Source: Thermoanaerobaculia bacterium (GTDB taxonomy: Bacteria > Acidobacteriota > Thermoanaerobaculia > Multivoradales > Multivoraceae). From it: a stretch of DNA of 64,000 nucleotides. A program made the translations under genes and the position numbers. This document shows positions 3,302 to 43,885 of this stretch, piece by piece; within the stretch, counting starts at the first letter, position 1; the number at the start of each line of letters is the position of its first letter. The stretch is from the NCBI GenBank assembly GCA_963666565.1, contig OY762911.1, positions 1,472,001-1,536,000 on the forward strand, read 5' to 3'. The notes under the pieces are model-generated. The model made no database searches. It had not been told where the DNA came from and was given only the letters and a program-made list of their open reading frames with translations.

Positions 3302-3587
3302 CCGGAACCCGCGCTCGAATCCGCATAGTCCGCCCGCAGCGCTGTTCGACACAGTGGGTCTGGCACGCCGACGTCCGCCCTCCGGCCCGGGAGCGCCACC
3401 GCGAGCGGGCCCAGCCCTCCCTTGGCCCAACACCTCTCGCCCGTGGACCGCGGAAGCCGACGATCCGCCGCCGCGGGGGTCGGGGTCGCCGGTCGGTCGC
3501 GGCCGTCTCGAAGCCTCGAAGCCGCCGCGCGACGGCCGCGGTCTCAAAGCCTGGCCCAGGCGCTGGCGGGTGCGTCCAGGACCGGCC

Positions 3588-4472
3588 TCAGCCGTCCCGC
3601 CAGCTCACCACCCGCATGAAGTACTGAACATCGATGAAGTCGCGCGGCTTGACTTCGGCCAGCCCAGCTTCCGCCAGTTCGTCGCGGACGACCTGGAAGA
3701 ACTCCCGGATCCGGCGGTAGCCGTCCCAGGCCACTTCCGAGCGGTAGCCCACGTCGTAGCGCCAGGCGGCGGCCGCTCTTGTGACGGAGTCGGGCTGGAC
3801 CAAGACTTCGCGATCGGGGAACACGATCCACCGAAAGTACGTCGAGAGCGGCCACCTTGCGGTTCCCAGGCTGTCCAACCACGAGACGAACTGCTCGAAG
3901 GCGGTTTCCTCGCTCCGCGATCCATAGAGCAGCGTCCGCAGTCCGCTTGCGAAGGCCCTTTCTCTGGCGTCGTCGCCAAGAACCTGTTTCCACAGGTCGT
4001 CGGAAGCGCGCCAGTCGACCACGTTCGTGATCTTGAGGTTCTTCTTGGCGCGCCGGCATGCCTCCGAGTGGTTTCCTTCTTCGAGCAGTTCGTCGAGGGC
4101 GTCGCGGCTCAGCCGCTCAAGGGCTTGCCGGCGAGCGGCCTCCTTGTAGTTCCGCTCGGCGGCGACGTACGCCTCGTTGGAGAACCCACCGGGAAACTTC
4201 CTGAGGAAGTAGTCGATCGACTTCGCGAGGTTGCGGTACTCCGGTACCAACGCCGTCGTCGAGTCCCGGAGATCGAGCCGATCGAGACGCGGATGGGCAG
4301 GTCTCGGCACGAGCGGAGGCAGCGGAATCCGCCCAAGGTCGATCTTCTTGACGCCGTCAACGAAGAAGATCTCCGCCTTGCCGCCACCCACATCGAGCAC
4401 CTGGCCGAGGCCGAGCTTGGGATGGAGAACGCGATCCCCCGAACTGAGCTGCGCTGCTGGCCGGCTGGTCAT
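3588..4472 (-). CDS. Hypothetical protein with N-terminal Tudor/SH3-like domain (DUF3553-like)
   Basis: GDRVLHPKLGLGQV N-terminus resembles the UvrD C-terminal/DUF3553 domain; C-terminal PRDFIDVQYF; coding-like composition. Confidence 0.6.
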   Translation of the reverse strand: MTSRPAAQLSSGDRVLHPKLGLGQVLDVGGGKAEIFFVDGVKKIDLGRIPLPPLVPRPAHPRLDRLDLRDSTTALVPEYRNLAKSIDYFLRKFPGGFSNEAYVAAERNYKEAARRQALERLSRDALDELLEEGNHSEACRRAKKNLKITNVVDWRASDDLWKQVLGDDARERAFASGLRTLLYGSRSEETAFEQFVSWLDSLGTARWPLSTYFRWIVFPDREVLVQPDSVTRAAAAWRYDVGYRSEVAWDGYRRIREFFQVVRDELAEAGLAEVKPRDFIDVQYFMRVVSWRDG

Positions 4473-8344: not shown

Positions 8345-9696
8345 CGCGTCTCTCCCAGCAGCAGCTCGTGGATCATCTCGTCTTCGTGGGCGGTCGTGCG
8401 GTAGACCTTGTAGCCGCCGACCGCGTACTTGCGGTGGTCCGGGTTGGCGCGGTCGTAGATCATCGTTCCCTCGACCCAGGTCTGCTCGACCTTCGTGTAG
8501 GCGCTCAGCGGATCGCCGGAGAGGATGACGAAGTCGGCGTCCTTGCCGGCTTCGAGCGAGCCGATCCGGTCCTCCAGTCCGAGCGCCCGCGCCGGCGCCA
8601 GGGTCAGCCCCTCGATCGCCTTGTCGCGCGACATCCCGTAGCGCACCGCCATCGCCGCGGCCCGGAACAGCAGCCGCGAATCGGTCACCGAGTCGTCCGT
8701 GTTGAAGCTGACGTCGACGCCCGCGCGCTCCAGGATCGCGCCCATCTCCATGTTCCAGTCGATCGTCTCCTCCTTGCCGCCCGGCGCGTCGATCCAGGTG
8801 ATCGACACCGGCACGCCGGCGGCGGCGAGTTCGTCGGCGACCTTCCAGGACTCCGTGCCGTGCTGGGCGACGACGCGGAACCCGAACTCCTCCTTGAGCC
8901 GCAGGACCGTGGCGATGTCGTTGTGGCGGTGCGTGTGGTGCTGGACGATCCGCTTGCCGTCGAGCACCTCGACCAGGGTCTCCATCCGCAGGTCGCGCTT
9001 CGCGGGCTCGCCGCCGTCTTCGCCGTCCTCGCCATCCTCGGCCTCGGCCTCGGCCATCTTCTCGCGGTACTCGACGGCCTCGTGGTAGAGGTTGCGGACC
9101 AGGGCGGCCGACTTGGCGCGGGTGCCGGGGAAGGGCGGCTGGCCGATCGAGTTCGTGCCGTTCGCCATCTTCAGGCCGCCGCAGATGCCGGTCAGCGGAT
9201 CGTCGCAGTAGAGCCAGTCCTCGATCGTGCGGGCGCCGTCGCGCAGCTTGACGTAGGCGGTCTGCCCGGACATGAGGTGCCCGGAGCCCGACATGATGTT
9301 GACCGTCGTGATGCCGCCGGCCCGGGCGCGCCAGATGCTGTCGGAGGCGACGTCGATCGAGTCGAGGTTCCGCACGTCCGGGTGCAGCGGCGCCGAGCGG
9401 TCGCCGCCGGAGACCGAGCCGATGTGGGAGTGGGTGTCGACGAGCCCGGGCATCAGCACCTTGCCGCCGAGGTCGTGCTCGACGGCGCCCCGGGGCGTGG
9501 ACGTGTCCGGGCCGCCGACGCCGACGATCCTGCCGCCCTGGACCACCAGGACGCCGTTGTCGATCGGCTCTCCGGCGATCGGCAGCAGCCGCGCGCCGCG
9601 GAAGACATGGGGATCGTCCTGCGCCGCGGCCGGCGTCGCGGCAAGAAGCGCCGGCAGCGCAACGGCGAACAGGAACGAGACGGGACGTTTTCTCAT
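8341..9696 (-). CDS. Secreted amidohydrolase-family protein
   Basis: Signal peptide; PGLVDTHSH, HHTH, FNTDD, GSLEAGKDADFV; 4-nt overlap with the next gene. Confidence 0.9.
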   Translation of the reverse strand: MRKRPVSFLFAVALPALLAATPAAAQDDPHVFRGARLLPIAGEPIDNGVLVVQGGRIVGVGGPDTSTPRGAVEHDLGGKVLMPGLVDTHSHIGSVSGGDRSAPLHPDVRNLDSIDVASDSIWRARAGGITTVNIMSGSGHLMSGQTAYVKLRDGARTIEDWLYCDDPLTGICGGLKMANGTNSIGQPPFPGTRAKSAALVRNLYHEAVEYREKMAEAEAEDGEDGEDGGEPAKRDLRMETLVEVLDGKRIVQHHTHRHNDIATVLRLKEEFGFRVVAQHGTESWKVADELAAAGVPVSITWIDAPGGKEETIDWNMEMGAILERAGVDVSFNTDDSVTDSRLLFRAAAMAVRYGMSRDKAIEGLTLAPARALGLEDRIGSLEAGKDADFVILSGDPLSAYTKVEQTWVEGTMIYDRANPDHRKYAVGGYKVYRTTAHEDEMIHELLLGETR

Positions 9697-9706
9697 GCGT
9701 GCTCCT

Positions 9707-10825
9707 CTAACGGCGGAACGACGGGTCAAGGTCGATACGGTACAACGCCTCCCGCGGCCGGCCGCCGTTGCGGCTGCCGCCCCAGACGACGTGGACGGCG
9801 ATGCGGTCGCCGCGGGGGCTCCAGGCCAGGTCGCCGACGTAGGCGTGGCCCAGGCTGTGGTCGGAGGCCGGATCGTTGAAGAACGTGAGCCGGCGCTTGT
9901 TCGAGCCGTCCGCGTCCATCAGCCACAGCTCGCGGCGGTCGGCGGCCGGCACCGCCTGGTCCGGCTCGGCGCCGCGGATTCCGGCGTTCGAGGTGAAGGC
10001 GACGTGCCGGCCGGTGGGCGACAGGCGGGCGTACTCGTCGGCGCCGCTCCGGGAGTGGGTGAGGCGCTCGGGCTCGCCGCCGTCGAAGCGCAGCCGGTAG
10101 AGGTCGAGCGTGTCGGGCGACTGCCCCGGTTCGAGGTTGGCCGCGACCAGCGCGCCGCGGTCGTCGGGCGTGTAGCCCTGCGGGACGATCAGGGCGTCGG
10201 CAGGCGCTGGATGCGTCCTGACCTTGCCCAGCCTCGGGATGCCGCTCCGCTTGACCTGGAACTCGGCACTGCGGAGGCGCCAGGTGCCGTAGCGGCCTTC
10301 GCGCGCCCTGAACCGCTCGCTCCACAGCAGCCGCTCGCCGTCGAACGCGAAGTGCGGGTCGAGCACCGCCGCGCCGCTGGCCGCGAATCGGGTGAGCAGG
10401 GTGAAGTGCTTGCCTCTCCGGTCGACGTCGTAAAACTCGCTGTGGACGCCGCGGTCGGGGGTCAGGAGCTGCAGCGGATCGGCCACGAACTTGAGCCGCT
10501 TCGGGTGGCTCTGGACCTGCACGACCAGCCGCTCGCCCGAGGGGTGCCACGCGGGGTTCAGCACGTTGTCCTTGCGGAGCTCGTACATCTCGCAGGTCAG
10601 GCAGCGCTCGGCCAGGAGGTCCGTCGACGTGACGTAGACGTCGTAGCGGCCGTCCTCGCCGGCCTTGTCGTAGGCCAGCCACTCGCCCTGGCGGGACCAG
10701 TCGACCCGGGCGCCGCCCTCGATCCAGCGTTCGATGCGCACCACCGGGTTCGTCTCCGGATCGGCGGCCGGCGCCGGCGCGGCGGCCGCGGCCAGCAGGA
10801 TGCAGATCAGGCGGAAACCGACCAT
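9707..10825 (-). CDS. Secreted TolB-like / PD40 beta-propeller protein
   Basis: Signal peptide MVGFRLICILLAAAAAPAPA; repeats NPAWHPSG, ARLSPTGRHVAFTS, LAWSPRGD. Confidence 0.8.
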   Translation of the reverse strand: MVGFRLICILLAAAAAPAPAADPETNPVVRIERWIEGGARVDWSRQGEWLAYDKAGEDGRYDVYVTSTDLLAERCLTCEMYELRKDNVLNPAWHPSGERLVVQVQSHPKRLKFVADPLQLLTPDRGVHSEFYDVDRRGKHFTLLTRFAASGAAVLDPHFAFDGERLLWSERFRAREGRYGTWRLRSAEFQVKRSGIPRLGKVRTHPAPADALIVPQGYTPDDRGALVAANLEPGQSPDTLDLYRLRFDGGEPERLTHSRSGADEYARLSPTGRHVAFTSNAGIRGAEPDQAVPAADRRELWLMDADGSNKRRLTFFNDPASDHSLGHAYVGDLAWSPRGDRIAVHVVWGGSRNGGRPREALYRIDLDPSFRR

Positions 10826-10892: not shown

Positions 10893-10957
10893 GGGTGCGC
10901 GGTTCTTCCGACCCGCCGGGTGCGCGGGTCTTCCGACCCGCCGCCGCCGAAGGCGGC
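10893..10957 (+). repeat. Two tandem REP-like hairpins followed by a GCCGCC-GAA-GGCGGC hairpin
   Basis: GGGTGCGCGG(T/G)TCTTCCGACCCGC at 10893 and 10918. Confidence 0.9.
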
Positions 10958-11031
10958 CGGAAAGACGAGTCGGCCGCCAGGCCGGCACCGCGTTGGCGGC
11001 CGGGTTCCGGGCGAGCGGCTGGCGGGTTCGG

Positions 11032-12186
11032 TCAGCGCGAGGCCACGCCGACGAGTTGGCGCCCGGCGCCTTCGCGCGGCGCCTCTGGCGACACGTCCCG
11101 CGGCTTCGCCTCCGGCTGCCACTCCGGGAAGAACTGCCGGTACCAGCGCCGCAGCCGGACGACCGGCCCGTCGTCGCGGCAGAGCGTCGGATGCGTCGTG
11201 TAGGTCTTGTTCTCCCAGATCCGGATGTCGTGCTCCCACTGGGAGATCCAGTTGCCGACGACGTACCAAACGAGCAGGCGCGGCATCCGGCGGTCGGCGA
11301 ACCAGTGGAAGTCGACCTGCTGCTCGAGCGGCGCGACCGGAAGGTGGGTCTGAACGATGTCGACCTCGCCGGCGCCGGGGATCGTGATGCGGAAGTTCAC
11401 GATGCTGGCCGGACCGGTGCAGGTGACCCGGGCGCTTGCCCGGGTCCGTTCGAGGCGCCGGCCGAAGACCCTGAGCACGGTCCGGTCGAGGAAGTACAGC
11501 CGCCAGGGCTTGTCGTCGTCCAGTTCCCATCCGGGCGTGTGGACGAGCTGAACGCCGGGAACCGGAATCTGCGTCCACGGCACCGTCATCTGGCTGTGGA
11601 TGTACCGGAAATGGGCGAAGTCGGCCGTGTTCTCAAGGAACTCGACGATGTGCATGCGCACGCAGCCGGCGTCGTGGTGGCCGCGGTAGGCGAAGCTCCC
11701 GTCGTCGACCTCCGGGATGCGGGGAACCGGGTAGGGGACGTGGTCGCCGGCCTGTTGCTTCGGTCCGGCGGCCCGGTGATGCAGGAAGATCTGCCCGTTC
11801 ACGTCCTCCACGGGGAAGCTCTCGGCCGCGACGCGGGACGGCACGGTGTCGCTGTACGGCACGCAGGCCGCCCGGCCGTCGCCGGTGAACTGCCAGTTGT
11901 GGAACGGACACTCGATGCGGTCCTCGCGGACGCGGCCGTGCCTCAGGTTCGCGCCCAGGTGGGGGCAGAAGGCCTGCATCGCGTGGACGTCGTCGCTGTC
12001 TTCGCTCCGCCAGACGACCAGCGCGCGGCCGAGGCACTCCAGGTAGCGCACCTGCCCGCGCCGGAGCGACTTCGACGTCATCAGCCGGTACCAGCCGTCC
12101 GGGTAGGGATGCGGATAGCCGGCGAGACGGAGATCGTCCGAGGTCGGCGGTTCCCGGCGCCGCGAACGGCGAGTGATGGCGCCCAT
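11032..12186 (-). CDS. Rieske non-heme iron oxygenase, cholesterol 7-desaturase (Neverland/DAF-36) / KshA-like
   Basis: PYPDGWY; Rieske CPHLGANL...CPFH; mononuclear Fe motif ENTADFAHFRYIH; C-terminal DIRIWENK...DGPVVRLRRWYRQF. Confidence 0.85.
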   Translation of the reverse strand: MGAITRRSRRREPPTSDDLRLAGYPHPYPDGWYRLMTSKSLRRGQVRYLECLGRALVVWRSEDSDDVHAMQAFCPHLGANLRHGRVREDRIECPFHNWQFTGDGRAACVPYSDTVPSRVAAESFPVEDVNGQIFLHHRAAGPKQQAGDHVPYPVPRIPEVDDGSFAYRGHHDAGCVRMHIVEFLENTADFAHFRYIHSQMTVPWTQIPVPGVQLVHTPGWELDDDKPWRLYFLDRTVLRVFGRRLERTRASARVTCTGPASIVNFRITIPGAGEVDIVQTHLPVAPLEQQVDFHWFADRRMPRLLVWYVVGNWISQWEHDIRIWENKTYTTHPTLCRDDGPVVRLRRWYRQFFPEWQPEAKPRDVSPEAPREGAGRQLVGVASR

Positions 12187-12270
12187 CGCGGACCTAACGC
12201 TGGCGGAAGGCAGGCATCCGCTCGAATCGGAACGAGGCGATCGGGTCGTTCACGAAGTCCTCCAGGCGGC

Positions 12271-13350
12271 TCACGAGGGAGTCGTCGCGTCGCCGTCCGG
12301 CTTGCGCGCGTGGATGAGGAAGGAGGGCGTGAAGATGCCCGCCACGCCGCCCTCGACGAGGGAGTCGGCGGCCACGTTCAGGATGCGGGCGGCCTCGCCG
12401 GTGCCGGCGGGCGCGATGCGGAGCAGCTCGAGCAGACGGGTCGCCCCGGCCGTGAACCGGCGGCCCGCGGGAATCCGCCCGAGCGACGCGAGCGAAAGGT
12501 CGCGTCCCTGGAGCGACCGGTACCAGGGAGTGTCCGGATCGCACTCGAGGGAGTAGTCCTTCGCGGCCAGGATCTCGAAGCCGGCAGCCCTGGCCGCGTC
12601 GAGCTGCTGCGAAGTCGTGAGCAGGTTGGGCGTCGCGTTGGCGACTTCAAGCCGGTCGCGGATGTCGCGGTGGGCGGGATCGCCCGCGTCGTACCTCGCG
12701 GTGAGGCACCAGTCATTCAAGGCCAGCTCGCCGCCCGGTCTGAGCAGACGGAAGAACTCCTTGAAGCAGAGGTCCGTTCGGGGCGCGTGACAGACGGCGT
12801 CGAAGGAGTACGCCGCATCGAAGCAGCCGTCCTCGAGAGGCACGTCCAGGAAGTTCGCGAGCAGGAAGTCGCACGTCTCTTCGAGCCCGGCCCGGCGCAC
12901 CGCCCTGCGGCCTCTCTCGATCTGGAGCGCATTGAGGTTCAGGCCCGTGATGCTGGCGCCGGTGGCCTTCGCGATCGCGATCATCGGCCCGCCGACGCCG
13001 CATCCGAGATCGGCGGCCTTCATTCCCGGCTTGAGATCCAGGAGTTCGGCGACGCCGAGTTCGTGGCGGCGGACCGAGTCCCGGAGGCTCTCCCCGGATC
13101 GCCGAGGAGAGAAGTGGAACGACTGCCCCCAGCCGTACTCGTAGAAGCGGGTGACGACGTCGTAGTAGCGACTCACCATGCCGGGCTGACCGCGCAGGGC
13201 GCGGTCTTCTTCCTCCGCGCCGACGAGTGCCTTCAGCTCGAGGTAATCGTCGAGCGCCTCTCTCAGGGAGCCGCCGCTGTTGGCGGCCACGTGCGGACGA
13301 CCCGGTGTCGTCTCCACGCCGTCAACGTCGATGTGCGCTGGCTCTGCCAT
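12271..13350 (-). CDS. Sterol C24-methyltransferase (SMT/ERG6-like)
   Basis: SMT signature YYDVVTRFYEYGWGQSFHF; SAM motif DLGCGVGGP; YSFDAVCHAP; LRPGG; C-terminal GIFTP...ARKP. Confidence 0.9.
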   Translation of the reverse strand: MAEPAHIDVDGVETTPGRPHVAANSGGSLREALDDYLELKALVGAEEEDRALRGQPGMVSRYYDVVTRFYEYGWGQSFHFSPRRSGESLRDSVRRHELGVAELLDLKPGMKAADLGCGVGGPMIAIAKATGASITGLNLNALQIERGRRAVRRAGLEETCDFLLANFLDVPLEDGCFDAAYSFDAVCHAPRTDLCFKEFFRLLRPGGELALNDWCLTARYDAGDPAHRDIRDRLEVANATPNLLTTSQQLDAARAAGFEILAAKDYSLECDPDTPWYRSLQGRDLSLASLGRIPAGRRFTAGATRLLELLRIAPAGTGEAARILNVAADSLVEGGVAGIFTPSFLIHARKPDGDATTPS

Positions 13351-13407
13351 GGGCGCCGTGCCTCCCCGCCCGTGAGCCTATACCCGCGTCGAGGAGGTCC
13401 GCCCGCT

Positions 13408-13431
13408 GGGTGCGCGGGTCTTCCGACCCGC
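13408..13431 (+). repeat. REP-like hairpin
   Basis: Exact consensus GGGTGCGCGGGTCTTCCGACCCGC. Confidence 0.9.
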
Positions 13432-13506
13432 CCACCGACACGCGGCCAGTTCCCCGCGCGGCAGCGCGGCCTCGCGGCTGCGAACGCTGCTAGCGTCCTC
13501 GTCGAG

Positions 13507-14664
13507 ATGACCGACGAAGCCGGCGCCCGGAAGCGAGCCAGTTTCGCCGTTCCGGCTCTGATCGCCCTGTGGATCGTCGGTTCGGCGCCCTTTCTGGGCC
13601 GCCTGACCCGGTGGATTCGGGAGGAGGTCGACCGTTCGCTTCTCGTGATCGTGCCGACGATCCTGTTCTGGGGCGCGGCGGCGGCGTTCGCGGTCTGGGT
13701 GGTGCGTTCGGCACGGCGCCTGCGATGGAAGAACTGGATCGCGATGGCGCTCGGTCTGCTCTGGGCGGTCGTCCAGGCGACGGCACTCGCCCGCGGCCGT
13801 CCCGAAGAGTCCGCCCTCGAGCGGATGCACCTGGTTCTCTACGGCGTCGTCGCTCTGCTGCTCTACCGGGCCTTCCTCCGGGGCGGCCGGTCGGCAATCG
13901 CGGCGGCGTTTTCGGCCGTTGCTCTGACTTCGCTCGTCGGGCTAGCCGACGAGTTCATCCAGTGGCTCGTGTGGGTCCGCGCCGGCGACTTCTACGACTG
14001 CCTGCTGAACGCCTCGGCCGCTGGCTGCGGCGTCGTCTTCGGGCTGGGCCTGTTCGGATTCGACCCCCGGTCCCCGCCTCTCCCGGAACGCCGCGCGATT
14101 GCCGTCCTGTGGGTCGTCCTCGCCGTGGCGTCGGTCGGCCTCGTCGATCTGACGAACCTCGGCCACCGGATCGTCGACCCGGAACTCGGCAGCTTCCAGA
14201 GCCACTACAGCGCCGAGCGGCTCGAGCGCCTGAACGAGAATCGCCGCGCCCGCTGGCCCGCGAAGCAGCCGCCGACGCCGCCCTTCCAGCCCTGGCAGGT
14301 CGAGGATCACTTCCTGTCCGAGGCCGCCTGGCATGTCCAGGCTCGCAACGAAGCCTTCGACGCGGGAGAGTGGGCCACCGCCGCCGCCGAGCAGGCGATC
14401 CTCAGCCGCTACTACCCGGCCGTGCTGGAAGAAGTTCGGAATCCCGACGGCAACCTGCGCCACGCCTTCCCGCTGGAGAGAGTCCAGCGGCTCCAGCAGG
14501 AAGGCGCTGTCCCCGTCCCGACGTACGAAAGCTCCGCGGGCGGCACCAGGATCTGGATCTGGCCGAGGTTCCTGGCGTCGACTCTCTTTCTTCTCGCCCT
14601 TCTCCCCGCGGTTCCGCTGTCGATGGTTGGGCATCGGCGCCGCACGATCCCGGACCGCTCATAG
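13507..14664 (+). CDS. VanZ-family membrane protein
   Basis: ERMHLVLYG...ADEFIQWLVWVRAGDFYDCLLNA motif; multiple TM segments. The long 10993 ORF is only real from about 13507. Confidence 0.8.
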   Translation: MTDEAGARKRASFAVPALIALWIVGSAPFLGRLTRWIREEVDRSLLVIVPTILFWGAAAAFAVWVVRSARRLRWKNWIAMALGLLWAVVQATALARGRPEESALERMHLVLYGVVALLLYRAFLRGGRSAIAAAFSAVALTSLVGLADEFIQWLVWVRAGDFYDCLLNASAAGCGVVFGLGLFGFDPRSPPLPERRAIAVLWVVLAVASVGLVDLTNLGHRIVDPELGSFQSHYSAERLERLNENRRARWPAKQPPTPPFQPWQVEDHFLSEAAWHVQARNEAFDAGEWATAAAEQAILSRYYPAVLEEVRNPDGNLRHAFPLERVQRLQQEGAVPVPTYESSAGGTRIWIWPRFLASTLFLLALLPAVPLSMVGHRRRTIPDRS

Positions 14665-22166: not shown

Positions 22167-24917
22167 CTACACCAGTTCGCTCAGCCGCCGCAGCGCGGCC
22201 AGCAGGTCCGGCTGTTCCGTCAGCACGCCGCGGAGCGGGTCGGCCTTCAGCTCTTTCAGCCGCTCGGGCACGGTGCGGATGTTGTGGTCGCGCAGGTCGA
22301 GACCGGGCTTGACTTCCGACCAGCGAAGCGGCGTCGACACCGGCGCCGCGGGCAGCGGCCGGACGCTGAAAGGGGCCACGAGCAGCCGGCCTCGGCCGTT
22401 CTGGACGTAGTCGATGTAGACCTTGCCGGCGCGCCGTTCCGGGTTGCGGGTCACGGTGGCGATCTCGGGCAGTTCGCGGCAGACGATCTGGGCGATGAGC
22501 TGCCCCAGGCCGCGCGACTGCTCCCATGTGCAGGCGCCGCCGAGCGGCAGGAGCACGTGCAGGCCGCTCGAGCCGCTGGTCTTGACGAAGCTGGGCAGCT
22601 CGATCTTCCGGCACAGGCGGCGGATGGCGAGGGCGATTTCGATCACGTCCTCGAACGGGGCGTCCTTGGGGTCGAGGTCGAGGATGCACCAGTCGGGCTG
22701 GCCGAGCCGGTGCAGCCGGCTGGACCACACGTGGAGGACGATCGCGGCCAGGTTGGCCACGTAGAGGAGGCTCTCGCGGTTCTGGCAGACGAAGTACTCG
22801 ACGTCCTTGCCGGTCCGCGGGCTGGTCAGCCGGACCGTCTGGAGCCAGTCCGGCGCGAAGTCCGGCGCGTTCTTCTGGAAGAAGGACTTGCCGTCGATCC
22901 CGTCCGGGTAGCGGGTCATCACCAGGGGACGGTCGCTCAGGTAGGGCTGGATCGCCCCGGCGACGGCGGCGTAGAAGTCGATCAGATCGCCCTTTGCGTA
23001 GCCCTCGTCCGGCCAGAAGACCTTGGAGACGTTCGTGATCTCGACCCGGCGCTTGGGCGGCACGGGCGGGGCGGCGCTCTTCGCGCGCGGCCCGGCGCGC
23101 CGGACGCAGTCCCCGATCGGCTTGTCGTCCCGGCGCCGCAGGAAGACCGGATGCCGGAGCAGGCCGTGGGGCGTCCACTCCTTGAAGCGGACCTCGCAGA
23201 CCAGTTCGTCGTCCGGCTCGACCCAGGTCTGGTCGGCGATGCGGCCGCCCATGATGTGCTCGTCGGCGAGCGCGGCGCCGGCCGGCGTCGCGCGGCCGTC
23301 TCCGGCATCGCCGGCGCCGTCTTCGATGTCTCGGTTGCCGCGGTCGCCGCCGTCCGCCGCCACGGGCGCTCCGCACGGAGGGCTGTCGCGCCGTCTGGCC
23401 GTCAGGCGCTCCGTCAGTTGCGCGAGATCCGCGTCGCTGAATCCCGTGCCGACGCGCCCGGCGTAGACGAGCCCGCCTCGCGGTCCGCCGTCGCCGCTGG
23501 CGCCTTCCGCTCCCTCGACGGCCCCGGCCTCGGGGTCCCAGACCGCCAGGTGGAGCGAGCCGAAGCCGACCCGGCTGCCCTTGGGCGGCGACATGCCGAC
23601 GATGGCGAAGTCGGCGGTGCGCTCGGTCCGGAACTTGACCCAGGACGACGAGCGGCGGCCCACGTAGCGCGACGCGCCGTCCTTGGCCATCGCCCCCTCG
23701 AGACCCATGGCGGCGACCTGCTCGAAGAACGCCTCTCCCTGCTCCTCGATGTGGTCGGAGTAGCGAAGCGGACCGGCCGGCGGCAGCACCCTGGCAAGCA
23801 GGGCCTTGCGCTCCAGCAGCGGCAGCGGGCGCAGGTCGCGGCCCTCGAACGACACCAGGTCGAAGGCGAACAGGGTCGCCGGCTGGCGCACGGCGGCCCG
23901 CTCGATGTCGACCTGGCGGCTGAGCAGGCCGCGCTGCTGCAGCCGGGGGAAGCTCGGCCGGCCGCCGCCGTCGAGCACGACGACTTCGCCGTCGAGGACC
24001 AGGGACTGCGCCGGCAGCGCTCGCAGGGCGCGGGTCAGCTCCGGGTAGAGCGCGGTCACGTCGCCGCCGCGCCGGTAGCGCAGGAAGACGTCGCCGCCCT
24101 CCCTGGCGGCGATCAGCCGGTAGCCGTCGTGCTTCAGTTCGTAGATCCAGCCGGCGCGGGAGAAGGGCCGGTCGCCCGCCACCGCCAGCATCGGCGGCAG
24201 CGTCCGCGGGTCGACCCGGCGGCGCGGCGCCGCCGACGCCTCGATCTCCTCCCGCACCTCCTCGATCCGCTCGCAGCCGTCCCGCAGTTCCTCCACGGTC
24301 AGGCCCGAGAGCACGGACTCCTGCGGCAGGCCGTCTCCGGGGCCGGCGTCCCCGTCGCCGCCGGCAGGGTCGGTGTGCATGTCGCTGCCGGCCCGGTTCG
24401 CGCCGTCGTCGCTGCCGGCCGGCCGCGCCGCGGCGTCCGGCTTCTTCATGAGCAGCCACTGACTGCCGTCCTCGGCCTGCCGCCGGCCGCCGGTGCGGAA
24501 CAGCGTCCACACGCCGCGCAGCTTGTAGCCCCGCAGCTCGAACAGGAGCTTGCCGCTCTCCATGCCGGCCACCGGATCCTCGAGCGGGACCCAGCGTCCG
24601 CTGTCCCACACGATCATCGCGCCGGCGCCGTAGTTGCCGGCGGGGATCGAGCCCTCGAAGTCGGCGTACTCCAGCGGGTGGTCCTCGGTGGCCACCGCGA
24701 GCCGCTTGACCTCCGGGTCGAGGCTGGGGCCGCGCGGCACGGCCCAGGACTTGAGCGTGCCCTCGAGTTCCAGGCGCAGGTCGAAGTGGACGCGGCGAGC
24801 GGCGTGCTTCTGGACGACGAAGCGCCCGCCGCCGGCCGCGGCTCGAGAGCCCATCGGCTCGGGCGTCGCGTCGCCCGAACGCTTGCGGCGGTAGACCTCC
24901 AGATCGCCGTGCGGCAT
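22167..24917 (-). CDS. ligD: NHEJ DNA ligase D (phosphoesterase - ligase - polymerase)
   Basis: FVVQKHAARRVHFDLRLE (PE), YELKHDGYR (ligase), RYPDGIDG...FFQK, DLDP, KTSGSSGLHV (POL). Confidence 0.95.
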   Translation of the reverse strand: MPHGDLEVYRRKRSGDATPEPMGSRAAAGGGRFVVQKHAARRVHFDLRLELEGTLKSWAVPRGPSLDPEVKRLAVATEDHPLEYADFEGSIPAGNYGAGAMIVWDSGRWVPLEDPVAGMESGKLLFELRGYKLRGVWTLFRTGGRRQAEDGSQWLLMKKPDAAARPAGSDDGANRAGSDMHTDPAGGDGDAGPGDGLPQESVLSGLTVEELRDGCERIEEVREEIEASAAPRRRVDPRTLPPMLAVAGDRPFSRAGWIYELKHDGYRLIAAREGGDVFLRYRRGGDVTALYPELTRALRALPAQSLVLDGEVVVLDGGGRPSFPRLQQRGLLSRQVDIERAAVRQPATLFAFDLVSFEGRDLRPLPLLERKALLARVLPPAGPLRYSDHIEEQGEAFFEQVAAMGLEGAMAKDGASRYVGRRSSSWVKFRTERTADFAIVGMSPPKGSRVGFGSLHLAVWDPEAGAVEGAEGASGDGGPRGGLVYAGRVGTGFSDADLAQLTERLTARRRDSPPCGAPVAADGGDRGNRDIEDGAGDAGDGRATPAGAALADEHIMGGRIADQTWVEPDDELVCEVRFKEWTPHGLLRHPVFLRRRDDKPIGDCVRRAGPRAKSAAPPVPPKRRVEITNVSKVFWPDEGYAKGDLIDFYAAVAGAIQPYLSDRPLVMTRYPDGIDGKSFFQKNAPDFAPDWLQTVRLTSPRTGKDVEYFVCQNRESLLYVANLAAIVLHVWSSRLHRLGQPDWCILDLDPKDAPFEDVIEIALAIRRLCRKIELPSFVKTSGSSGLHVLLPLGGACTWEQSRGLGQLIAQIVCRELPEIATVTRNPERRAGKVYIDYVQNGRGRLLVAPFSVRPLPAAPVSTPLRWSEVKPGLDLRDHNIRTVPERLKELKADPLRGVLTEQPDLLAALRRLSELV

Positions 24918-24997
24918 CAGGCGTGCATTCTCCCAGAACGTCAAGGGAGCTTCACGGAATCCCGCGGAAGCGGTTTCAATGCTAGGATTTGCGGTCT

Positions 24998-25966
24998 ATG
25001 CCCGCTCGTACCGTTGGCGCCGGCACCGTCTCGTTCGGCCTGGTCTCGATTCCCGTCCGCCTGTACTCCACCTCGGAGACCTCGGGCGCGGTCCGCTTCA
25101 ATATGCTCGACCCGACCGACAACACGCGGGTCAAGCAGCAGTTGATCAACCCGCGCACCGGCGCCGAGGTGAAGCGCAAGGAGACCATCAAGGGCTACGA
25201 GTTCGGCAAGGGCCAGTACGTCACCTTCAGCGACGAGGAGATCAAGGGCCTCCAGGAGAAGGCGTCGCCCGCCATCGAGATCACCGAGTTCGTGCCGCTC
25301 GAGGAAGTCGAGCCGATCTACTTCGAGAAGTCGTACTACCTGGGTCCCGAGAAGGGCGGCGAACGCGCCTACCGGCTGCTCAGCGAGGCGATGCGGAAGA
25401 CCGGCCGTTCGGCTCTGGCCAAGCACGCGGCGCGCGGCAAACAGTACCTCGTCATGCTCCGCCCCTTCGCGTCCGGCCTGCTGATGCAGCAACTGAAGTA
25501 CGAGGACGAGCTGAAGTCGTTCGACGAGGTGCCGCTCGGCGAGGAGACGGAGCTCAAGCCGGGCGAACTGGAGCTTGCCGTGCAGTTGATCGAGCAGATC
25601 GCGTCGGACGAGTTCAAGCCCGGCGAGTACACCGACGAGGTGCGCAAGCGGCTGTGGGACGCGATCCAGAGCAAGATCGACGGCCGCGAACTGGCCGAGG
25701 ACGAGACGGAGGCGCCTCAGGCACAGATCATCGACCTGATGGAGGCGTTGAAGGCGAGCCTGTCGAAGAACGGCGAAGCCGACGCCGGCGAGTCGGCCGC
25801 CGGCGGCGCCAGACCGAAGTCCGGCGCCCGCAAGGCCGGGGCCGCCAAGCCCAATTCCGGAACCCGCAAGCCGGCCAGGAAGGCGACGGCGCCGCGCAAG
25901 GCGACGAAGAAGAAGCCGGTTCGGCGAGCCGCGAGCACGACGGCGAAGCGGGCCGTGGCCGGTTGA
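24998..25966 (+). CDS. ku: NHEJ Ku protein
   Basis: GTVSFGLVSIPVRLY, IKGYEF, YFEKSYYLGP, IIDLMEALKASL, Lys-rich tail; divergent from ligD. Confidence 0.95.
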   Translation: MPARTVGAGTVSFGLVSIPVRLYSTSETSGAVRFNMLDPTDNTRVKQQLINPRTGAEVKRKETIKGYEFGKGQYVTFSDEEIKGLQEKASPAIEITEFVPLEEVEPIYFEKSYYLGPEKGGERAYRLLSEAMRKTGRSALAKHAARGKQYLVMLRPFASGLLMQQLKYEDELKSFDEVPLGEETELKPGELELAVQLIEQIASDEFKPGEYTDEVRKRLWDAIQSKIDGRELAEDETEAPQAQIIDLMEALKASLSKNGEADAGESAAGGARPKSGARKAGAAKPNSGTRKPARKATAPRKATKKKPVRRAASTTAKRAVAG

Positions 25967-27916: not shown

Positions 27917-29767
27917 GTGGGAAACGACCAACGCGCGAATTGGTTCACGTGTGGCGCGAGAACGCGCCACACGGGTGCCCGCCGGCTTCCGGGAAGGGCG
28001 CGCCGCGAAGCGGCGACCGTCCTGCACGTCGCGGTCGCCGCCGCCGGCGTGTTCGCGGCTCAGGCCGCGCCCGCACACGCCCAGCGTCCCGGAGCGCCGA
28101 TCGACGTCCTGGACTACCGCTTCGAGCTCACCCTCTCCGATGAAACCGACGAGATCGAAGGCAAGGCGGCCATCGCCTTCCGCGTCCTCCGGCCGGCCGC
28201 AGAGATCGCGTTCGACCTCGACGACCCGGCGGCCGCCAGCAGCCTGGAAGCCGGCGGCAAGGCCGGCGACGGCCGGCCGGCCGGCGGCATGACCGTCTCC
28301 GCCGTCGAACTGGCCGTGCCGCCGAACCGGGCCGCTCCGCCTCTCGCGTCCGCGGCGTCCGGCCGATCCACTCGTTCCGGCCTGCCCGAACCGCCCGGCG
28401 CCGCGTCATTCGATCCGGCGCCGGCTCTGAGTTTCCGCCAGGAGGGCGACCGTCTCCATGTCCGCCTCCTCCGCGAGGCGGCGGCCGGCGAGCGGCGCCG
28501 GATCGTCGTCCACTACCGCGGCGTACCGGCCGACGGCTTCACGATCGGCCGAAACCGCCACGGCGAGCGCACCTTCTTCGCCGACAACTGGCCCGACCGG
28601 GCGCACCACTGGCTGCCGGTCGTCGACCACCCGTCGGACAAGGCGACCGTGGCCTTCGCCGTCACGGCGCCGGCGCACTACCAGGTCGTCGCCACCGGCG
28701 CCTTCGTCGAGGCGGTGGACCTGGAAGACGGCAGGCGGCGCACCGAGTGGCGCAGCCGGGCGCCGATCGCGACCAAGGTGATGGCGGTCGGCGTCGCGCG
28801 CTTCGTCCGGCAGCGCCAGGCGCTCGTCGACGGCGTGCCGGTCGAAACCTGGGTCTACCCGCAGGACCGCGAAGCCGGCCTGCGGGCGTTCGCGCCGGGG
28901 GCGCGCGTGCTGGGCGCCTTCGAGCGGCGGCTCGGCGACTACCCCTACGCCAAGCTCGCCAACGTGCAGACGACGACCCGCTGGGGCGGCCTGGAGAACG
29001 CCGGCAACGTGTTCTACGACGAGGATGCCGTCGACCGCGAAGGTGGCATCGAGACCCTGGTCGCCCACGAGATCGCCCACCAGTGGTACGGCGACTCGGT
29101 CACCGAGAGCGACTGGCCGCACGTCTGGCTGAGCGAGGGCTTCGCGACCTACCTGACCGCCTGCTACCTGGAGTGGACCTACGGGCGCGGGCGCTTCCTG
29201 GGGCAGATGGACGCGGCGCGGGAGCGGGTCCTGAGCTACGTGGAGGAAGCGCCGGACTCCGTCGTCGTGCCGGAATCCGTGCCCGACCCGCGGCGGCTGC
29301 TCAGCCCGAACGTCTACCAGAAGGCGGCCTGGGTGCTGCACATGCTCCGCGGCGAGGTCGGCGACGGCACGTTCTGGAAGGGGATGCGGATTTACTACGA
29401 GCGCTTCCGGGACCGTAACGCCTCGACCGCCGACTTCGCGGCGGTGATGGAGGAGGTCTCGGGGCGGAGGCTCGACTGGTTCTTCGATCAGTGGCTCCGC
29501 CGGCCCGGCGTGCCGGAGCTCGAGATCGAGTGGGGCTTCGACGCGGCGCCGGCGTTGGAGATCGAGGCGCGGCAGCTCGGACCGACGATCTACCGCCTGC
29601 CGCTCGACGTCGAGGCAGTCATGGCAGACGGCCGCGGCGTGCGCGGTCGCTTCGCGGTTGAGGGCGAACGGACGACCGCCACGATCCCCCTGCGCGAGCG
29701 CCCGGAGCGGCTGCGCTTCGACCCGGACGGCTGGCTCCTCATGCGGTACACGGTGGAGGAGGAGTAG
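27917..29767 (+). CDS. M1-family metallo-aminopeptidase
   Basis: GGLEN, HEIAHQWYG...WLSEGFATY, VYQKAAWVLHML. Start uncertain. Confidence 0.9.
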   Translation: MGNDQRANWFTCGARTRHTGARRLPGRARREAATVLHVAVAAAGVFAAQAAPAHAQRPGAPIDVLDYRFELTLSDETDEIEGKAAIAFRVLRPAAEIAFDLDDPAAASSLEAGGKAGDGRPAGGMTVSAVELAVPPNRAAPPLASAASGRSTRSGLPEPPGAASFDPAPALSFRQEGDRLHVRLLREAAAGERRRIVVHYRGVPADGFTIGRNRHGERTFFADNWPDRAHHWLPVVDHPSDKATVAFAVTAPAHYQVVATGAFVEAVDLEDGRRRTEWRSRAPIATKVMAVGVARFVRQRQALVDGVPVETWVYPQDREAGLRAFAPGARVLGAFERRLGDYPYAKLANVQTTTRWGGLENAGNVFYDEDAVDREGGIETLVAHEIAHQWYGDSVTESDWPHVWLSEGFATYLTACYLEWTYGRGRFLGQMDAARERVLSYVEEAPDSVVVPESVPDPRRLLSPNVYQKAAWVLHMLRGEVGDGTFWKGMRIYYERFRDRNASTADFAAVMEEVSGRRLDWFFDQWLRRPGVPELEIEWGFDAAPALEIEARQLGPTIYRLPLDVEAVMADGRGVRGRFAVEGERTTATIPLRERPERLRFDPDGWLLMRYTVEEE

Positions 29768-29775
29768 CCGCCGCC

Positions 29776-30501
29776 ATGCCCGCCAGCAGCCTCTCCGCGG
29801 CCGAGGACTTCGAGCGCTCCCACGCCGGCGGCGCCTTCGGCACCGTTCTGGCCGATCCGCCCTGGCAGTTCACGAACCGCACCGGCAAGGTGGCGCCCGA
29901 GCACCGCCGGCTCAGCCGCTACGCGACGCTGACGCAGGAGGAGATCGAAGCGATTCCGGTCGCCGCCGCCTGCGCCGAGGACGCCCATCTCTACCTGTGG
30001 GTGCCGAATGCTCTCCTCCAGGAAGGCCTCGACGTGATGCAGCGCTGGGGCTTCACCTACAAGACGAACCTGGTCTGGCACAAGGTCCGCAAGGACGGCG
30101 GTCCCGACGGCCGCGGCGTCGGCTTCTACTTCCGCAACACGACGGAACTCGTCCTCTTCGGCGTGCGTGGCAAGCTCCGGACGCTCGCTCCCGGTCGCCG
30201 CCAGGTCAACATCATCCGCTCGCGCAAGCGGGAGCACTCCCGCAAGCCGGACGAGCTCTACGACATCGTCGAAGCGTGCAGCCCCGGCCCGTACCTGGAA
30301 CTCTTCGCCCGCGGCCGCCACTCGGAACGCTGGACCGTCTGGGGCGACCAGAGCACGGACTACGAACCCGACTGGCCCACCTACGCAAACGCCCGGTCCT
30401 GCCGCCAAAGGCCGCCAGGAGAACGCGCCGGCCGTCAGGCCCGCGCCGCCCCAACGGCCAGTCAGCCACGAACGCGGCGTCCCGCCGGCGTCAGGCGGTA
30501 G
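29776..30501 (+). CDS. MT-A70-family N6-adenine methyltransferase
   Basis: ADPPW, HLYLW, WGFTYKTNLVW, HSRKP, YLELFAR. Confidence 0.92.
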   Translation: MPASSLSAAEDFERSHAGGAFGTVLADPPWQFTNRTGKVAPEHRRLSRYATLTQEEIEAIPVAAACAEDAHLYLWVPNALLQEGLDVMQRWGFTYKTNLVWHKVRKDGGPDGRGVGFYFRNTTELVLFGVRGKLRTLAPGRRQVNIIRSRKREHSRKPDELYDIVEACSPGPYLELFARGRHSERWTVWGDQSTDYEPDWPTYANARSCRQRPPGERAGRQARAAPTASQPRTRRPAGVRR

Positions 30502-31457
30502 CGCTGGTTTCTTGCTCTGGGCACCTTGGGCCGCGTCATCTCGATCAGGCCGCCGTCGAGAGCGGGGCCGAGGTATCTCTGACGCAGCCACTTGCGGTCT
30601 CGCAGGTCCAGGGCGGCGAGCAGATCTCGCCCCGACATCTCGCCGTCCAGGACCTGCAGAAGCCGCTGTACTTGGGGGGATACTTGGGGGGATACTTGGG
30701 GGGTCGCTTCCCGCAAGGCGGCGAGGATCGCGTCCAGCACGAAACAGATGAACGGCGTGCTCTCACCTTGCCTGGAACTATCTTCGATCGCCGTGTAGTA
30801 CTCGGGCTGGCGCGTGTGCACGACGCTCTCCACCGGCACCTGTGCGAACAGCGGCTTCCAGCGGCGGAGGATGAGGGTCTGCCACAGCCGGCCGAGGCGG
30901 CCGTTGCCGTCTTCGAACGGATGGATGAACTCGAACTCGTAGTGAAACACGGAGCTCGCGATCAACGGGTGTTCGTCGGTGTCCCGCAGCCAGCCGAGGA
31001 GGTCGGCCATAAGCCCAGGCACCCGGTCGGCCGGCGGACCGATGTGATGCACGCCGTCCGGGCCGACCACGCCCACGGTGCCGGTGCGGTACCGCCCCGG
31101 CGTACCGGCGAGTTCGGCCATCATTGCAGCGTGAGCGGCCAGCAAGTCGGCCTCGCTCGCGGGCGTCCAGTCCTCGGCCAGGTCGTAGCTCCTGTTCGCG
31201 TTGCGCACCTCCTGCACATCCCTCGGCGGTCCCACGACGCGTTGGCCGTCGAGGATCGCCGACACCTGCTCCTCCGACAACACGTTGCCCTCGATGGCGA
31301 CGGAACCGTGAACCGTGCGCACCCGCGCCTCGCGCCGCAGTCGCAGGTCCAGCCCCAGTCCAGCCGCCTCGGCGTGACCGATCGCCCCGCCGATCCGCTC
31401 CACCAGGGACAGGATCCCGGGCGTGATCGTGTATGGGGGCTTGGCGGCGGGGGCCAT
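30462..31457 (-). CDS. Fic-family protein with C-terminal wHTH
   Basis: HPFEDGNGRLGR catalytic motif; GSVAIEGN inhibitory motif; PQVS repeats. Confidence 0.92.
   Translation of the reverse strand: MAPAAKPPYTITPGILSLVERIGGAIGHAEAAGLGLDLRLRREARVRTVHGSVAIEGNVLSEEQVSAILDGQRVVGPPRDVQEVRNANRSYDLAEDWTPASEADLLAAHAAMMAELAGTPGRYRTGTVGVVGPDGVHHIGPPADRVPGLMADLLGWLRDTDEHPLIASSVFHYEFEFIHPFEDGNGRLGRLWQTLILRRWKPLFAQVPVESVVHTRQPEYYTAIEDSSRQGESTPFICFVLDAILAALREATPQVSPQVSPQVQRLLQVLDGEMSGRDLLAALDLRDRKWLRQRYLGPALDGGLIEMTRPKVPRARNQRYRLTPAGRRVRG
30669..30703. repeat. 12-bp in-frame tandem repeat inside the fic gene
   Basis: (TACTTGGGGGGA) x about 3, encoding PQVS repeats. Confidence 0.85.
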
Positions 31458-42119: not shown

Positions 42120-42125
42120 ACCACC

Positions 42126-43873: not shown

Positions 43874-43885
43874 GCTTCGGGAGAG

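Follow-up and report, generated by a model that had tools for sequence, protein, structure and literature searches.

What would an uncultured acidobacterium, a near relative of Candidatus Multivorans, do with a gene of the sterol methyltransferase (SMT) family that is directly followed by a gene for a Rieske oxygenase, and would the two proteins work on sterols together? This question is raised by a window of 64,000 nucleotides (by window we mean the whole stretch of DNA that was analysed), for which an initial annotation, made from the sequence letters, had described a sterol-remodelling cassette of two adjacent, co-oriented genes, recognized by an SMT signature and a sterol-type Rieske signature. 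Both genes are present where they had been placed, and both carry the motifs that had been quoted:

12271-13350, minus strand: SMT gene, 359 aa, SMT/ERG6 family (open reading frame and Pfam)
12187-12270, minus strand: spacer of 84 bp between the SMT stop and the Rieske start
11032-12186, minus strand: Rieske oxygenase gene, 384 aa, Neverland/DAF-36-type (open reading frame and Pfam)
10971-10984, minus strand: terminator-like hairpin, 48 bp beyond the stop codon of the Rieske gene

The order on the minus strand is SMT gene first, with the Rieske gene downstream of it in the same orientation. By codon position, the GC content of both follows the pattern expected of real genes, with GC3 values of 0.87 and 0.91 (the window has ~70% GC). 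A scan of the coding strand found neither a promoter-like nor a terminator-like site in the 84-bp spacer. The evidence from the hairpin is weak (two terminator-like sites were found in the scanned region vs 1.0 expected from shuffled sequences).

By its domains and motifs the first gene is a member of the SMT family, as had been proposed. The encoded protein matches Pfam Sterol_MT_C (PF08498; 4.4e-19, 68.8 bits vs a cut-off of 21.7, profile positions 9-65 of 66) and has a class I SAM-methyltransferase domain (Methyltransf_11, 6.4e-19; Methyltransf_25, 7.4e-17). Its sterol-binding Region I motif is intact: FYEYGWGQSFHF occupies residues 69-80 (window 13111-13146), with YEYGWG at 70-75; the glycine-rich SAM loop GCGVGG follows at residues 116-121, and DAVCHAP at residues 184-190 (window 12781-12801). 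PF08498 is found in all of the best 120 SMT homologues listed, many of which are named sterol 24-C-methyltransferase by JGI, and the closest ESM Atlas clusters of the SMT include clusters of fungal sterol 24-C-methyltransferases (0.99). The Region I positions (Y81 and F83 in yeast numbering) were taken from the preprint of Brown and Welander (2025), according to which Phe at two Region I positions raises the output of isopropyl sterols. The motif YEYGWG has Tyr at both of these Phe-sensitive positions, which argues weakly against propylation; the counterpart of the propylation-determining Gly249 would be Asn238 if a constant offset from Region I is used (a provisional alignment). The product prediction therefore goes no further than a methyl, perhaps an ethyl group.

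The second protein matches the Pfam families Rieske (7e-22) and KshA_C (1.8e-22), and contains two metal-binding motifs:

11899-11967, minus strand: Rieske [2Fe-2S] ligand motif CPH-x16-CPFH, residues 74-96
11596-11631, minus strand: mononuclear iron motif NTADFAHFRYIH, residues 186-197

In an alignment of 23 sequences, C74, H76, C93 and H96 are invariant, and so are N186, D189, H192, H197 and D320; the counterparts of the cluster and iron ligands are also invariant in an alignment of eukaryote-like sequences. We take the roles of the iron ligands to be those known from KshA, and D320 is likely to be the third ligand of the mononuclear iron. The AlphaFold2 model of the protein has a mean pLDDT of 81.6, and its closest solved folds are those of KshA (Foldseek, TM 0.64-0.72). 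About 20 residues precede the conserved core of the protein, which lacks a hydrophobic segment, so no N-terminal membrane anchor was found; in the eukaryote-like representatives the N-terminus is longer by 60-100 or more residues that include a hydrophobic stretch. In the ESM Atlas the protein falls in bacterial clusters only, which have automatic names and are not decisive.

On sequence grounds the Rieske protein belongs on the Neverland/DAF-36 (cholesterol 7-desaturase) side, away from KshA; the phylogeny that the initial annotation had suggested for telling the two clades apart places it there. In a maximum-likelihood tree of 60 hand-chosen rows (quick search, no bootstrap), the clade of the window's protein is nested within the Neverland-type group, with a branch of SH-aLRT 96 between it and the 10 KshA-like rows of the outgroup. 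Within that group it is part of 38 rows (SH-aLRT 97) that also include sequences from Naegleria, a rotifer and Physarum as well as unnamed ones, and these 38 rows are sister to a 12-row group of animal Nvd sequences. Comparison with the eukaryote-like profile by hhalign gave a probability of 100 and an E-value of 1e-108, collinear over 338 columns with 41% consensus identity. Among the first ~130 rows of a library clustered at 50% identity, every representative either aligns over the full length in a single stretch or is a fragment, and many have an N-terminal hydrophobic extension. The Neverland-type representatives match the Rieske protein over the full length with up to 369 bits, vs 152 bits in two stretches for the first KshA-like representative (P0373, which matches the KshA structure 4qdc with 557 bits). 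A profile of 33 eukaryote-like representatives retrieves proteins that NCBI or UniRef name as cholesterol 7-desaturases (nvd or daf-36), from fish, lungfish, shark, birds, a lizard, Bombyx, Helicoverpa, a barnacle, the sponge Halichondria, Naegleria and rotifers, and the same list holds three members of the window's clade at 360-406 bits. At 50% identity the bacterial Rieske clade forms a single representative, and the nearest representatives outside it share 31-52% identity with the Rieske protein.

Two other identities were rejected. KshA itself matches with 131 bits in two stretches (phmmer E of 3.7e-37), and KshA-like rows are the outgroup of the tree; SdmA was rejected at 49.9 bits vs a cut-off of 600 (NCBIfam NF052579). 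As for an sdmB partner, the recurrent neighbours of related loci include no conserved NAD(P)-dependent reductase gene beside the pair, and a short-chain dehydrogenase cluster (c42) occurs in three loci only.

The SMT and Rieske genes form one unit that is conserved far outside the source genome, in line with their initial reading as a module: a same-strand SMT gene is found beside the Rieske gene in 46 out of 78 related loci, all from MAGs, which belong to seven phyla (25 loci in Acidobacteriota, 10 in Chloroflexota, four in Actinomycetota, three in Gemmatimonadota, two in Pseudomonadota and one each in Myxococcota and Spirochaetota). No other neighbour is conserved across phyla in the related loci (the neighbour Pfam scans covered representatives of 44 recurrent families and eight further frames of the loci L045 and L046; each locus reached up to 10 kb on each side). 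The aligned coding stretches of the two genes lie 0-75 bp apart in 41 out of 44 pairs, and in one locus (L041) the stop of one overlaps the start of the other. Distances in the SMT tree and in the Rieske tree go together (Mantel r of 0.91, a value reached by 0 of 999 permutations). The conservation suggests a sterol-tailoring route shared across uncultured bacteria of seven phyla. In L045 and L046 a gene of the geranylgeranyl-reductase family (TIGR02032; 1.6e-29 and 1.9e-31) lies between the SMT and Rieske genes; a bacterial sterol C-24 reductase, Bsr, is reported to be of this family (PMC12004948), and a gene of this kind within the pair speaks for sterol side chains as the substrate. No adjacent SMT gene was found within the available sequence of 32 of the 78 loci (for L056 and L072 the upstream part is too short to decide). 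These solo copies of the Rieske gene interleave with the paired copies on the tree, requiring at least 10 changes, so that the oxygenase is not strictly dependent on an adjacent SMT. The context of the family in Chloroflexota looks catabolic, with CoA-transferase, PhyH-dioxygenase, amidohydrolase, hydrolase and transporter genes. We found no description of the SMT/Rieske pairing in the literature; one supplement outside our reach may mention it.

The window was initially said to lack squalene epoxidase and cyclase genes, and this holds: none of the 59 window frames scanned matches squalene epoxidase, oxidosqualene cyclase, CYP51 or ERG24 by Pfam, and a six-frame screen of the window with crude motifs was negative for sterol-forming genes. 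The crude motif screen found none in any of the related loci either, where misses are possible; its single match, in L035, is P450-like and unrelated. A reductase partner for the Rieske oxygenase is not encoded nearby. The proposal of host or dietary sterols as the substrate has one basis, that no cyclase lies in the 64 kb analysed out of a ~4.8-Mb contig, and de novo supply is just as possible, because ERG24-CYP51-LSS clusters occur in phyla that carry the pair. Such clusters are reported from 115 out of 537 sponge-associated MAGs of 10 phyla, with SMT genes enriched (PMC9531527); five of the seven phyla with the pair are among those mentioned there (which take in Acidobacteriota, Gemmatimonadota, Actinobacteriota and Chloroflexota, and also Gammaproteobacteria). 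The window itself has a cluster of mevalonate-pathway genes (HMG-CoA reductase, GHMP kinase, diphosphomevalonate decarboxylase and an FMN-dependent IDI-like gene), a pathway that Hoshino and Gaucher discuss as the stage at which bacterial steroid synthesis obtains its precursors (PMC8237579).

The best explanation, to which we give about an even chance, is that the pair would combine C-24 methylation by the SMT with sterol oxidation by the Neverland-type oxygenase, most probably at C7(8). The two genes would be transcribed as one unit. The SMT would transfer the methyl group of SAM to C-24 of a sterol with a delta-24 double bond in its side chain, giving 24-methylene or 24-methyl sterols. The Rieske protein would receive electrons from a reductase or ferredoxin encoded elsewhere, activate O2 at its mononuclear iron and oxidize the same sterols; by homology to Neverland and DAF-36 this step would most probably be the C7(8) desaturation of a delta-5 sterol, and the unit would put out 24-alkylated delta-5,7 (ergosterol-type) sterols. 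Homology is all that sets the position of attack, which is probably C7(8); it also makes the 24-alkyl delta-5,7 product a reasonable guess, and we infer the substrate and the order of the two steps. Metagenomic bacterial SMTs are reported to methylate desmosterol in vitro (PMC10070321), and Capsaspora to convert cholesterol to ergosterol with a Rieske C7-desaturase, an SMT and a C22-desaturase (PMC4967820); our literature search found no assayed member of the bacterial Rieske clade. The C7(8) assignment is weakened by the 31-52% identity given above, a range in which the attack position of Rieske oxygenases can change. There are counterpoints as well: ring desaturation offers no obvious reason for a tight coupling to a side-chain methyltransferase, the bacterial proteins are without the eukaryotic N-terminal anchor, and reductase and sterol-forming genes are absent nearby. 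The solo copies of the Rieske gene and the catabolic-looking Chloroflexota context count against this reading too.

One other arrangement is a serious possibility, somewhat short of even: the pair may be the last, tailoring part of a full bacterial pathway to sterols, whose genes for the cyclase and for C-14 and C-4 demethylation are located elsewhere in the genome, and not a means of remodelling sterols from a host or the diet. The ERG24-CYP51-LSS clusters of sponge-associated MAGs and the mevalonate-pathway cluster within the window both speak for it, as does the report that 13 out of 24 tested metagenomic SMTs come from clusters or MAGs with a cyclase (PMC10070321). However, cyclase, CYP51 and ERG24 genes are absent beside the pair in the 78 loci (by crude motifs and the Pfam scans of recurrent neighbours) and in the window, and the 12 clusters of Supplementary Data 1 of PMC10070321 have sdmA and sdmB and no Neverland-type gene. 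The absence of sterol-forming genes nearby, together with an activity that is assigned to the clade by homology, could also mean that the substrate of the pair is an isoprenoid other than a sterol (squalene, a hopanoid or a different triterpenoid, of bacterial or host origin). Triterpene methyltransferases are indeed known among SMT-like enzymes (Botryococcus). We nevertheless regard a non-sterol substrate as quite improbable: the Sterol_MT_C domain and the Region I motif are intact, characterized members of both partner families act on sterols, and desmosterol was methylated by eight out of 10 sponge-symbiont SMTs and 12 out of 14 environmental SMTs among those reported as tested (PMC10070321).

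Sterols could also be attacked elsewhere than at C7(8). It is known that SMTs require an olefinic side chain, and the oxygenase could act on the side chain of the sterol, for example by making a delta-24(25) or delta-25 double bond for the SMT; saturated sterols such as cholesterol could in this way be admitted to alkylation, or else the newly alkylated chain could be desaturated or hydroxylated. Oxidation of the side chain would account for the adjacency or overlap of the two genes in seven phyla (0-75 bp in 41 of 44 pairs; the overlap in L041) and for the Bsr-family gene inside the pair in two loci, and we still consider it unlikely, as the characterized members of the Neverland group all act, to our knowledge, at C7(8). 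The Neverland-group enzyme of Capsaspora is one that is reported to act at C7 (PMC4967820). Most improbable of all is a catabolic role, with the oxygenase as a KshA-like hydroxylase that opens rings and the region as one of steroid degradation. Among solved structures KshA is indeed the best match, in sequence as well as in fold, divergent 'KshA homologs' are described as restricted to sponge MAGs (PMC5790920), and the Chloroflexota paralogues lie among catabolic-looking genes; but KshA-like sequences form the outgroup of the tree, and the 131 bits to KshA in two stretches stand against up to 369 bits over the full length for Neverland-type proteins. KshB, KstD and Hsa-type genes are absent from the 59 window frames and the 44 recurrent neighbour families, and a fixed biosynthetic methyltransferase partner is at odds with catabolism.

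Each known system shares some features with the pair and differs in others. Neverland, DAF-36 and Tetrahymena DES7 have the same Rieske and KshA_C domains, the same cluster and iron ligands and the same side of the tree; the bacterial protein, with its predicted function, is shorter and anchorless, has a bacterial clade of its own and is encoded directly after an SMT. The metagenomic bacterial SMTs (Brown et al. 2023, PMC10070321, and the preprint) resemble the window's SMT in having both domains, in their bacterial origin and in being well represented among symbiont MAGs, and several are reported to methylate both desmosterol and 24-methylenecholesterol in vitro. They are described, however, as clustering with cyclase, CYP51, ERG24 and sdmA/sdmB, whereas the window's SMT is found with a Neverland-type oxygenase and none of those. 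KshA is likewise a steroid-acting Rieske oxygenase, with a shared C-terminal domain family and the closest solved structures, but it has the two-stretch similarity and outgroup position noted above, and its catabolic context is absent at the window locus. SdmA, the Rieske oxygenase of bacterial sterol C-4 demethylation, is often clustered with an SMT (PMC10070321), but the window's protein scores far below the SdmA equivalog cut-off and sdmB was not found adjacent. Capsaspora is similar in using the Rieske C7-desaturase and SMT families on an exogenous sterol, and differs in being a eukaryote with unlinked genes that also needs a P450 C22-desaturase (PMC4967820).

That host-associated (largely sponge) bacteria share the pair horizontally as a module for converting sterols, possibly those of the host, to 24-alkyl delta-5,7 sterols, is a tentative and rather doubtful extension of the preferred reading. 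If it is true, some of the sterol signal now credited to sponges would come from bacteria, which would bear on the argument built on sterane biomarkers; steranes with alkylated side chains serve to date early animals, a reading that is said to have been complicated already when bacterial SMTs were discovered (PMC10070321). A second tailoring enzyme linked to the SMT in seven phyla would show bacterial sterol alkylation to belong to a selected, transferable pathway that probably ends in delta-5,7 sterols of the ergosterol type, and a testable role would be gained for the first bacterial branch among Neverland proteins. If, in a bolder variant, the oxygenase makes saturated host sterols methylatable by creating the double bond in the side chain, this would be a Rieske activity without earlier description. 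In either case the SMT and Rieske pair is a two-gene construct open to direct assay.

The initial annotation had also described the cassette as bracketed by REP-like repeats:

13408-13429, plus strand: single copy of a 22-nt REP-like repeat, 58 bp ahead of the start codon of the SMT gene
10893-10914 and 10918-10939, plus strand: two tandem copies of the same repeat, downstream of the operon

No exact copy of this 22-mer was found in any of the 78 related loci. The repeats are real, but the bracketing role falls away: 10 copies (with at most three mismatches) are found across the window vs 0.02 expected from shuffled sequences, and since they are scattered through the window they are not a marker of the cassette; their dispersal rules them out as its borders. 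The 22-mer is a dispersed intergenic repeat of the source genome, whose remaining copies in the window lie at 14724, 21994, 22018, 22132, 35817, 38711 and 58153.

The sterol C-24 methyltransferase (SMT) gene and the Rieske oxygenase gene of the window are a real, well-conserved two-gene unit with a predicted role in sterol tailoring, as seen in their families, motifs, operon layout and conservation. Each protein belongs to a known family. The two genes are:

12271-13350, minus strand: SMT gene (ORF, 359 aa)
11032-12186, minus strand: Rieske oxygenase gene (ORF, 384 aa), 3' of the SMT gene

The initial annotation described an adjacent, co-oriented pair; this is what we observed (SMT then Rieske, 84 bp apart), and all motifs it cited are found in the two proteins. 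The SMT protein matches Sterol_MT_C (4.4e-19) and SAM-methyltransferase domains in Pfam. In the Rieske protein, Pfam finds a Rieske domain (7e-22) plus the catalytic domain KshA_C (1.8e-22); the cluster ligands CPH-x16-CPFH lie at residues 74-96, and residues 186-197 form the iron motif NTADFAHFRYIH. The G+C content of the window is ~70%, and both genes have the codon-position GC pattern typical of its real genes (GC3 = 0.87 for SMT and 0.91 for Rieske). A Shine-Dalgarno-like GGGGAGG is found 5' of the SMT start codon. The terminator-like hairpin 48 bp 3' of the Rieske stop codon is weak evidence, as a scan of the region gave two sites vs 1.0 expected. Both genes are overlapped on the opposite strand by an ORF of 1223 aa (10993-14664); it has a sub-threshold VanZ match in its last third only (26.1 bits vs a cut-off of 30.1), and we consider it spurious over the SMT-Rieske stretch.

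Scanning species-representative genomes with A1 (a 23-sequence alignment of the window's bacterial Rieske clade) yielded 264 confirmed matches, of which the best 80 correspond to 78 loci, all from records titled MAG. Several organisms titled in the matched records (Candidatus Multivorans, Poriferisodalis) are presumably sponge associates, judging from the meaning of their names. Of the 78 loci, 46 have SMT adjoining the Rieske gene in the same orientation (by submitters' taxonomy, Acidobacteriota 25, Chloroflexota 10, Actinomycetota 4, Gemmatimonadota 3, Pseudomonadota 2, Myxococcota 1 and Spirochaetota 1). In 44 of these pairs each aligned stretch is 250 aa or longer; the count of 46 also includes L009, where a contig end truncates SMT, and L076, where SMT is intact and the Rieske match fragmentary. 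SMT is directly upstream, with 0-75 bp between aligned stretches, in 41 of the 44 pairs; two have one gene in between (L045, Myxococcota, and L046, Spirochaetaceae) and one has the order reversed (L066). Among the 32 loci outside the 46, two (L056 and L072) have less than 1.1 kb upstream and so cannot be scored; in the rest the oxygenase gene is solo, sometimes in a pair-bearing genome (e.g. L002 and L032 are on one chromosome). The whole neighbourhood is common to close acidobacterial relatives, and beyond these no neighbour except SMT is conserved across phyla in the 78 loci.

The closest solved structures by sequence are KshA (E 3.7e-37, confined to two separate stretches), and KshA structures are also nearest (TM 0.64-0.72) to an AlphaFold2 model of the Rieske protein (mean pLDDT 81.6); PDB matches from the sequence and fold searches included no Neverland-type structure. 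In a 50%-identity library the entire clade of the window protein collapses into a single representative (P0079). Representatives ranked after it, many with an N-terminal hydrophobic extension, are 31-52% identical to the window protein and are fragments or align at full length in a single stretch; the first KshA-like representative is at just 152 bits to the window protein, and at 557 bits to the KshA structure 4qdc. We searched with a profile built from 33 extension-bearing representatives (A2, eukaryote-like and Neverland-type), which retrieved 141 proteins at E <= 1e-20. The 120 listed include proteins named cholesterol 7-desaturase (nvd/daf-36) by NCBI/UniRef from vertebrates (fishes, lungfish, sharks, birds and a lizard), Bombyx, Helicoverpa, a barnacle, the sponge Halichondria, Naegleria and rotifers, together with three members of the window clade (360-406 bits). 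Profile-profile alignment of A1 and A2 covers 338 collinear columns (probability 100, E 1e-108, 41% identity), and residues invariant in A2 have identical invariant counterparts in A1. We also built a maximum-likelihood tree (quick search, SH-aLRT support only) of 60 rows hand-picked from ~490 proteins: 13 from the window clade, 21 named eukaryotic or EukProt/MMETSP, 16 other (15 unnamed and one named Polyangiales) and 10 outgroup. The KshA-like outgroup is split from all other rows (SH-aLRT 96), and the window clade belongs to a group of 38 rows (SH-aLRT 97) that also holds Naegleria, rotifer, Physarum and unnamed sequences and is sister of the animal Nvd group. Based on the A2 matches, the tree and the profile-profile alignment, the Neverland versus KshA phylogeny that the initial annotation called for favours the Neverland side. 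The protein was rejected as SdmA (49.9 bits to the NCBIfam SdmA model vs a cut-off of 600).

Patristic distances in separate SMT and Rieske trees (44 pairs plus the window) are strongly correlated (Mantel r 0.91, reached by 0 out of 999 permutations), which fits a pair inherited or transferred as a unit, with relatedness alone accounting for part of the correlation. Signs of transfer are seen: the L045 and L046 copies are sisters on short branches (their intervening genes are 87% identical), and the Actinomycetota copies are scattered among Acidobacteriota and Gemmatimonadota copies, with one among Chloroflexota. Mapped onto a tree of 77 oxygenase copies, adjacency to SMT is present in both halves and requires at least 10 changes, so the pairing looks old and marked by repeated duplication or loss.

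For the function we infer substrate, regiochemistry and order of steps. SMT would methylate C-24 of a delta-24 sterol, and the oxygenase, with electrons from an unlinked reductase, would most probably introduce a C7(8) double bond by analogy with its eukaryotic relatives, giving 24-alkyl delta-5,7 sterols. A serious rival reading has the oxygenase act on the side chain (e.g. making the double bond that SMT requires), which would better account for the tight coupling of the two genes. The gene between SMT and the oxygenase in two loci is of the geranylgeranyl-reductase family:

L045 (Myxococcota), 8828-9928: geranylgeranyl-reductase-family gene
L046 (Spirochaetaceae), 3352-4467: geranylgeranyl-reductase-family gene

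Among NCBIfam models it matches TIGR02032 best (1.6e-29 and 1.9e-31, short of the model's 158.8-bit cut-off). A member of this family, Bsr, reduces the sterol C-24 double bond in Myxococcota according to PMC12004948, and the intervening gene may encode a Bsr-like side-chain reductase; its position is an argument for sterol side chains being what the module works on. The Chloroflexota loci (within L043-L062, and L074) have their own conserved neighbourhood around the oxygenase, with or without SMT, which looks catabolic: it encodes CoA-transferase III, PhyH dioxygenase, several amidohydrolases, alpha/beta hydrolases, MFS and xanthine/uracil-type permeases, DinB_2 and DUF7002. L048 and L051 each have two oxygenase copies.

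Bacterial SMTs are established: Brown et al. (PMC10070321) report activity for 8/10 sponge-symbiont and 12/14 environmental SMTs. Their 12 tabulated clusters (Supplementary Data 1) list ERG1, 7, 9, 11, 24, 6, 4, 2, DHCR24 and sdmA/B/C; the sdmA homologues are 44-47% identical to the Methylococcus gene. SdmA and the window oxygenase belong to different Rieske families, and neither 'Rieske' nor 'desaturase' occurs in the text of that paper. Kelly et al. (PMC9531527) report an enrichment of SMT in sponge MAGs, along with cyclase clusters across 10 phyla, and Holert et al. (PMC5790920) a sponge-only cluster of divergent 'KshA homologs'. The oxygenase may already be among the 'three uncharacterized genes' that accompany SMT in PMC8237579. 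Our full-text search found no description of a bacterial SMT paired with a Neverland-type oxygenase; in the literature searched, neither this combination nor a bacterial Neverland branch has been described or assayed.

The pair was also said to be bracketed by REP-like repeats. The 22-nt repeats are real:

10893-10914, 10918-10939 and 13408-13429: copies flanking the pair
starts at 14724, 21994, 22018, 22132, 35817, 38711 and 58153: copies in unrelated intergenic places

The 22-mer (GC-rich, with a small internal hairpin GGGTC-TTCC-GACCC, at times in tandem) occurs 10 times in the 64 kb vs 0.02 expected, and the 78 related loci contain no exact copy. Being so dispersed and without an exact copy in related loci, it is a genome-wide REP-like element and no cassette border.

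The genes downstream of the pair encode a secreted beta-propeller-like protein and two amidohydrolases; those upstream encode a divergent VanZ-like membrane protein, a GCS2-type ligase and gamma-glutamyltranspeptidase. Scanning 59 window frames against Pfam gave no squalene epoxidase or cyclase, as the initial annotation had noted, and no CYP51 or sterol reductase. The sterol could come from the organism's own pathway or from a host, the stated preference for host sterols reflecting solely this absence from 64 kb. The Pfam-scanned frames include a mevalonate-pathway cluster, which is of note near a sterol-tailoring operon as a possible source of isoprenoid precursors:

39079-44938, plus strand: mevalonate-pathway cluster
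39939-42119 (frame), plus strand: HMG-CoA reductase (5e-116)
42662-43873, plus strand: GHMP kinase
43886-44938, plus strand: diphosphomevalonate decarboxylase
within the cluster: FMN-dependent dehydrogenase-like gene, possibly type 2 IDI (match spans the C-terminal part only)

In L041 (9974-11170, a Candidatus Poriferisodalis record) the SMT stop overlaps the oxygenase start, and the oxygenase C-terminus is a ~35-residue copy of the C-terminal tail of SMT (...AESSRIPNAAADALV...FTPSYLVHARKPD), hence the Sterol_MT_C match in the database listing of the Rieske homologue P0094; the copy may have arisen by duplication, or it may be a recombination scar or an artefact of assembly. Elsewhere in the window, divergent LigD (phosphoesterase, ligase and primase-polymerase domains) and Ku genes at 22167-25966 are a bacterial non-homologous end-joining pair. 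An MT-A70-family methyltransferase gene adjoins one for a Fic/DOC-domain protein at 29662-31718; codon bias is weaker there (GC3 0.80-0.84), and the two genes may form a mobile or defence-related islet. At 61608-62957 (minus strand) a gene for SelA (L-seryl-tRNA(Sec) selenium transferase) implies selenocysteine use by the organism.
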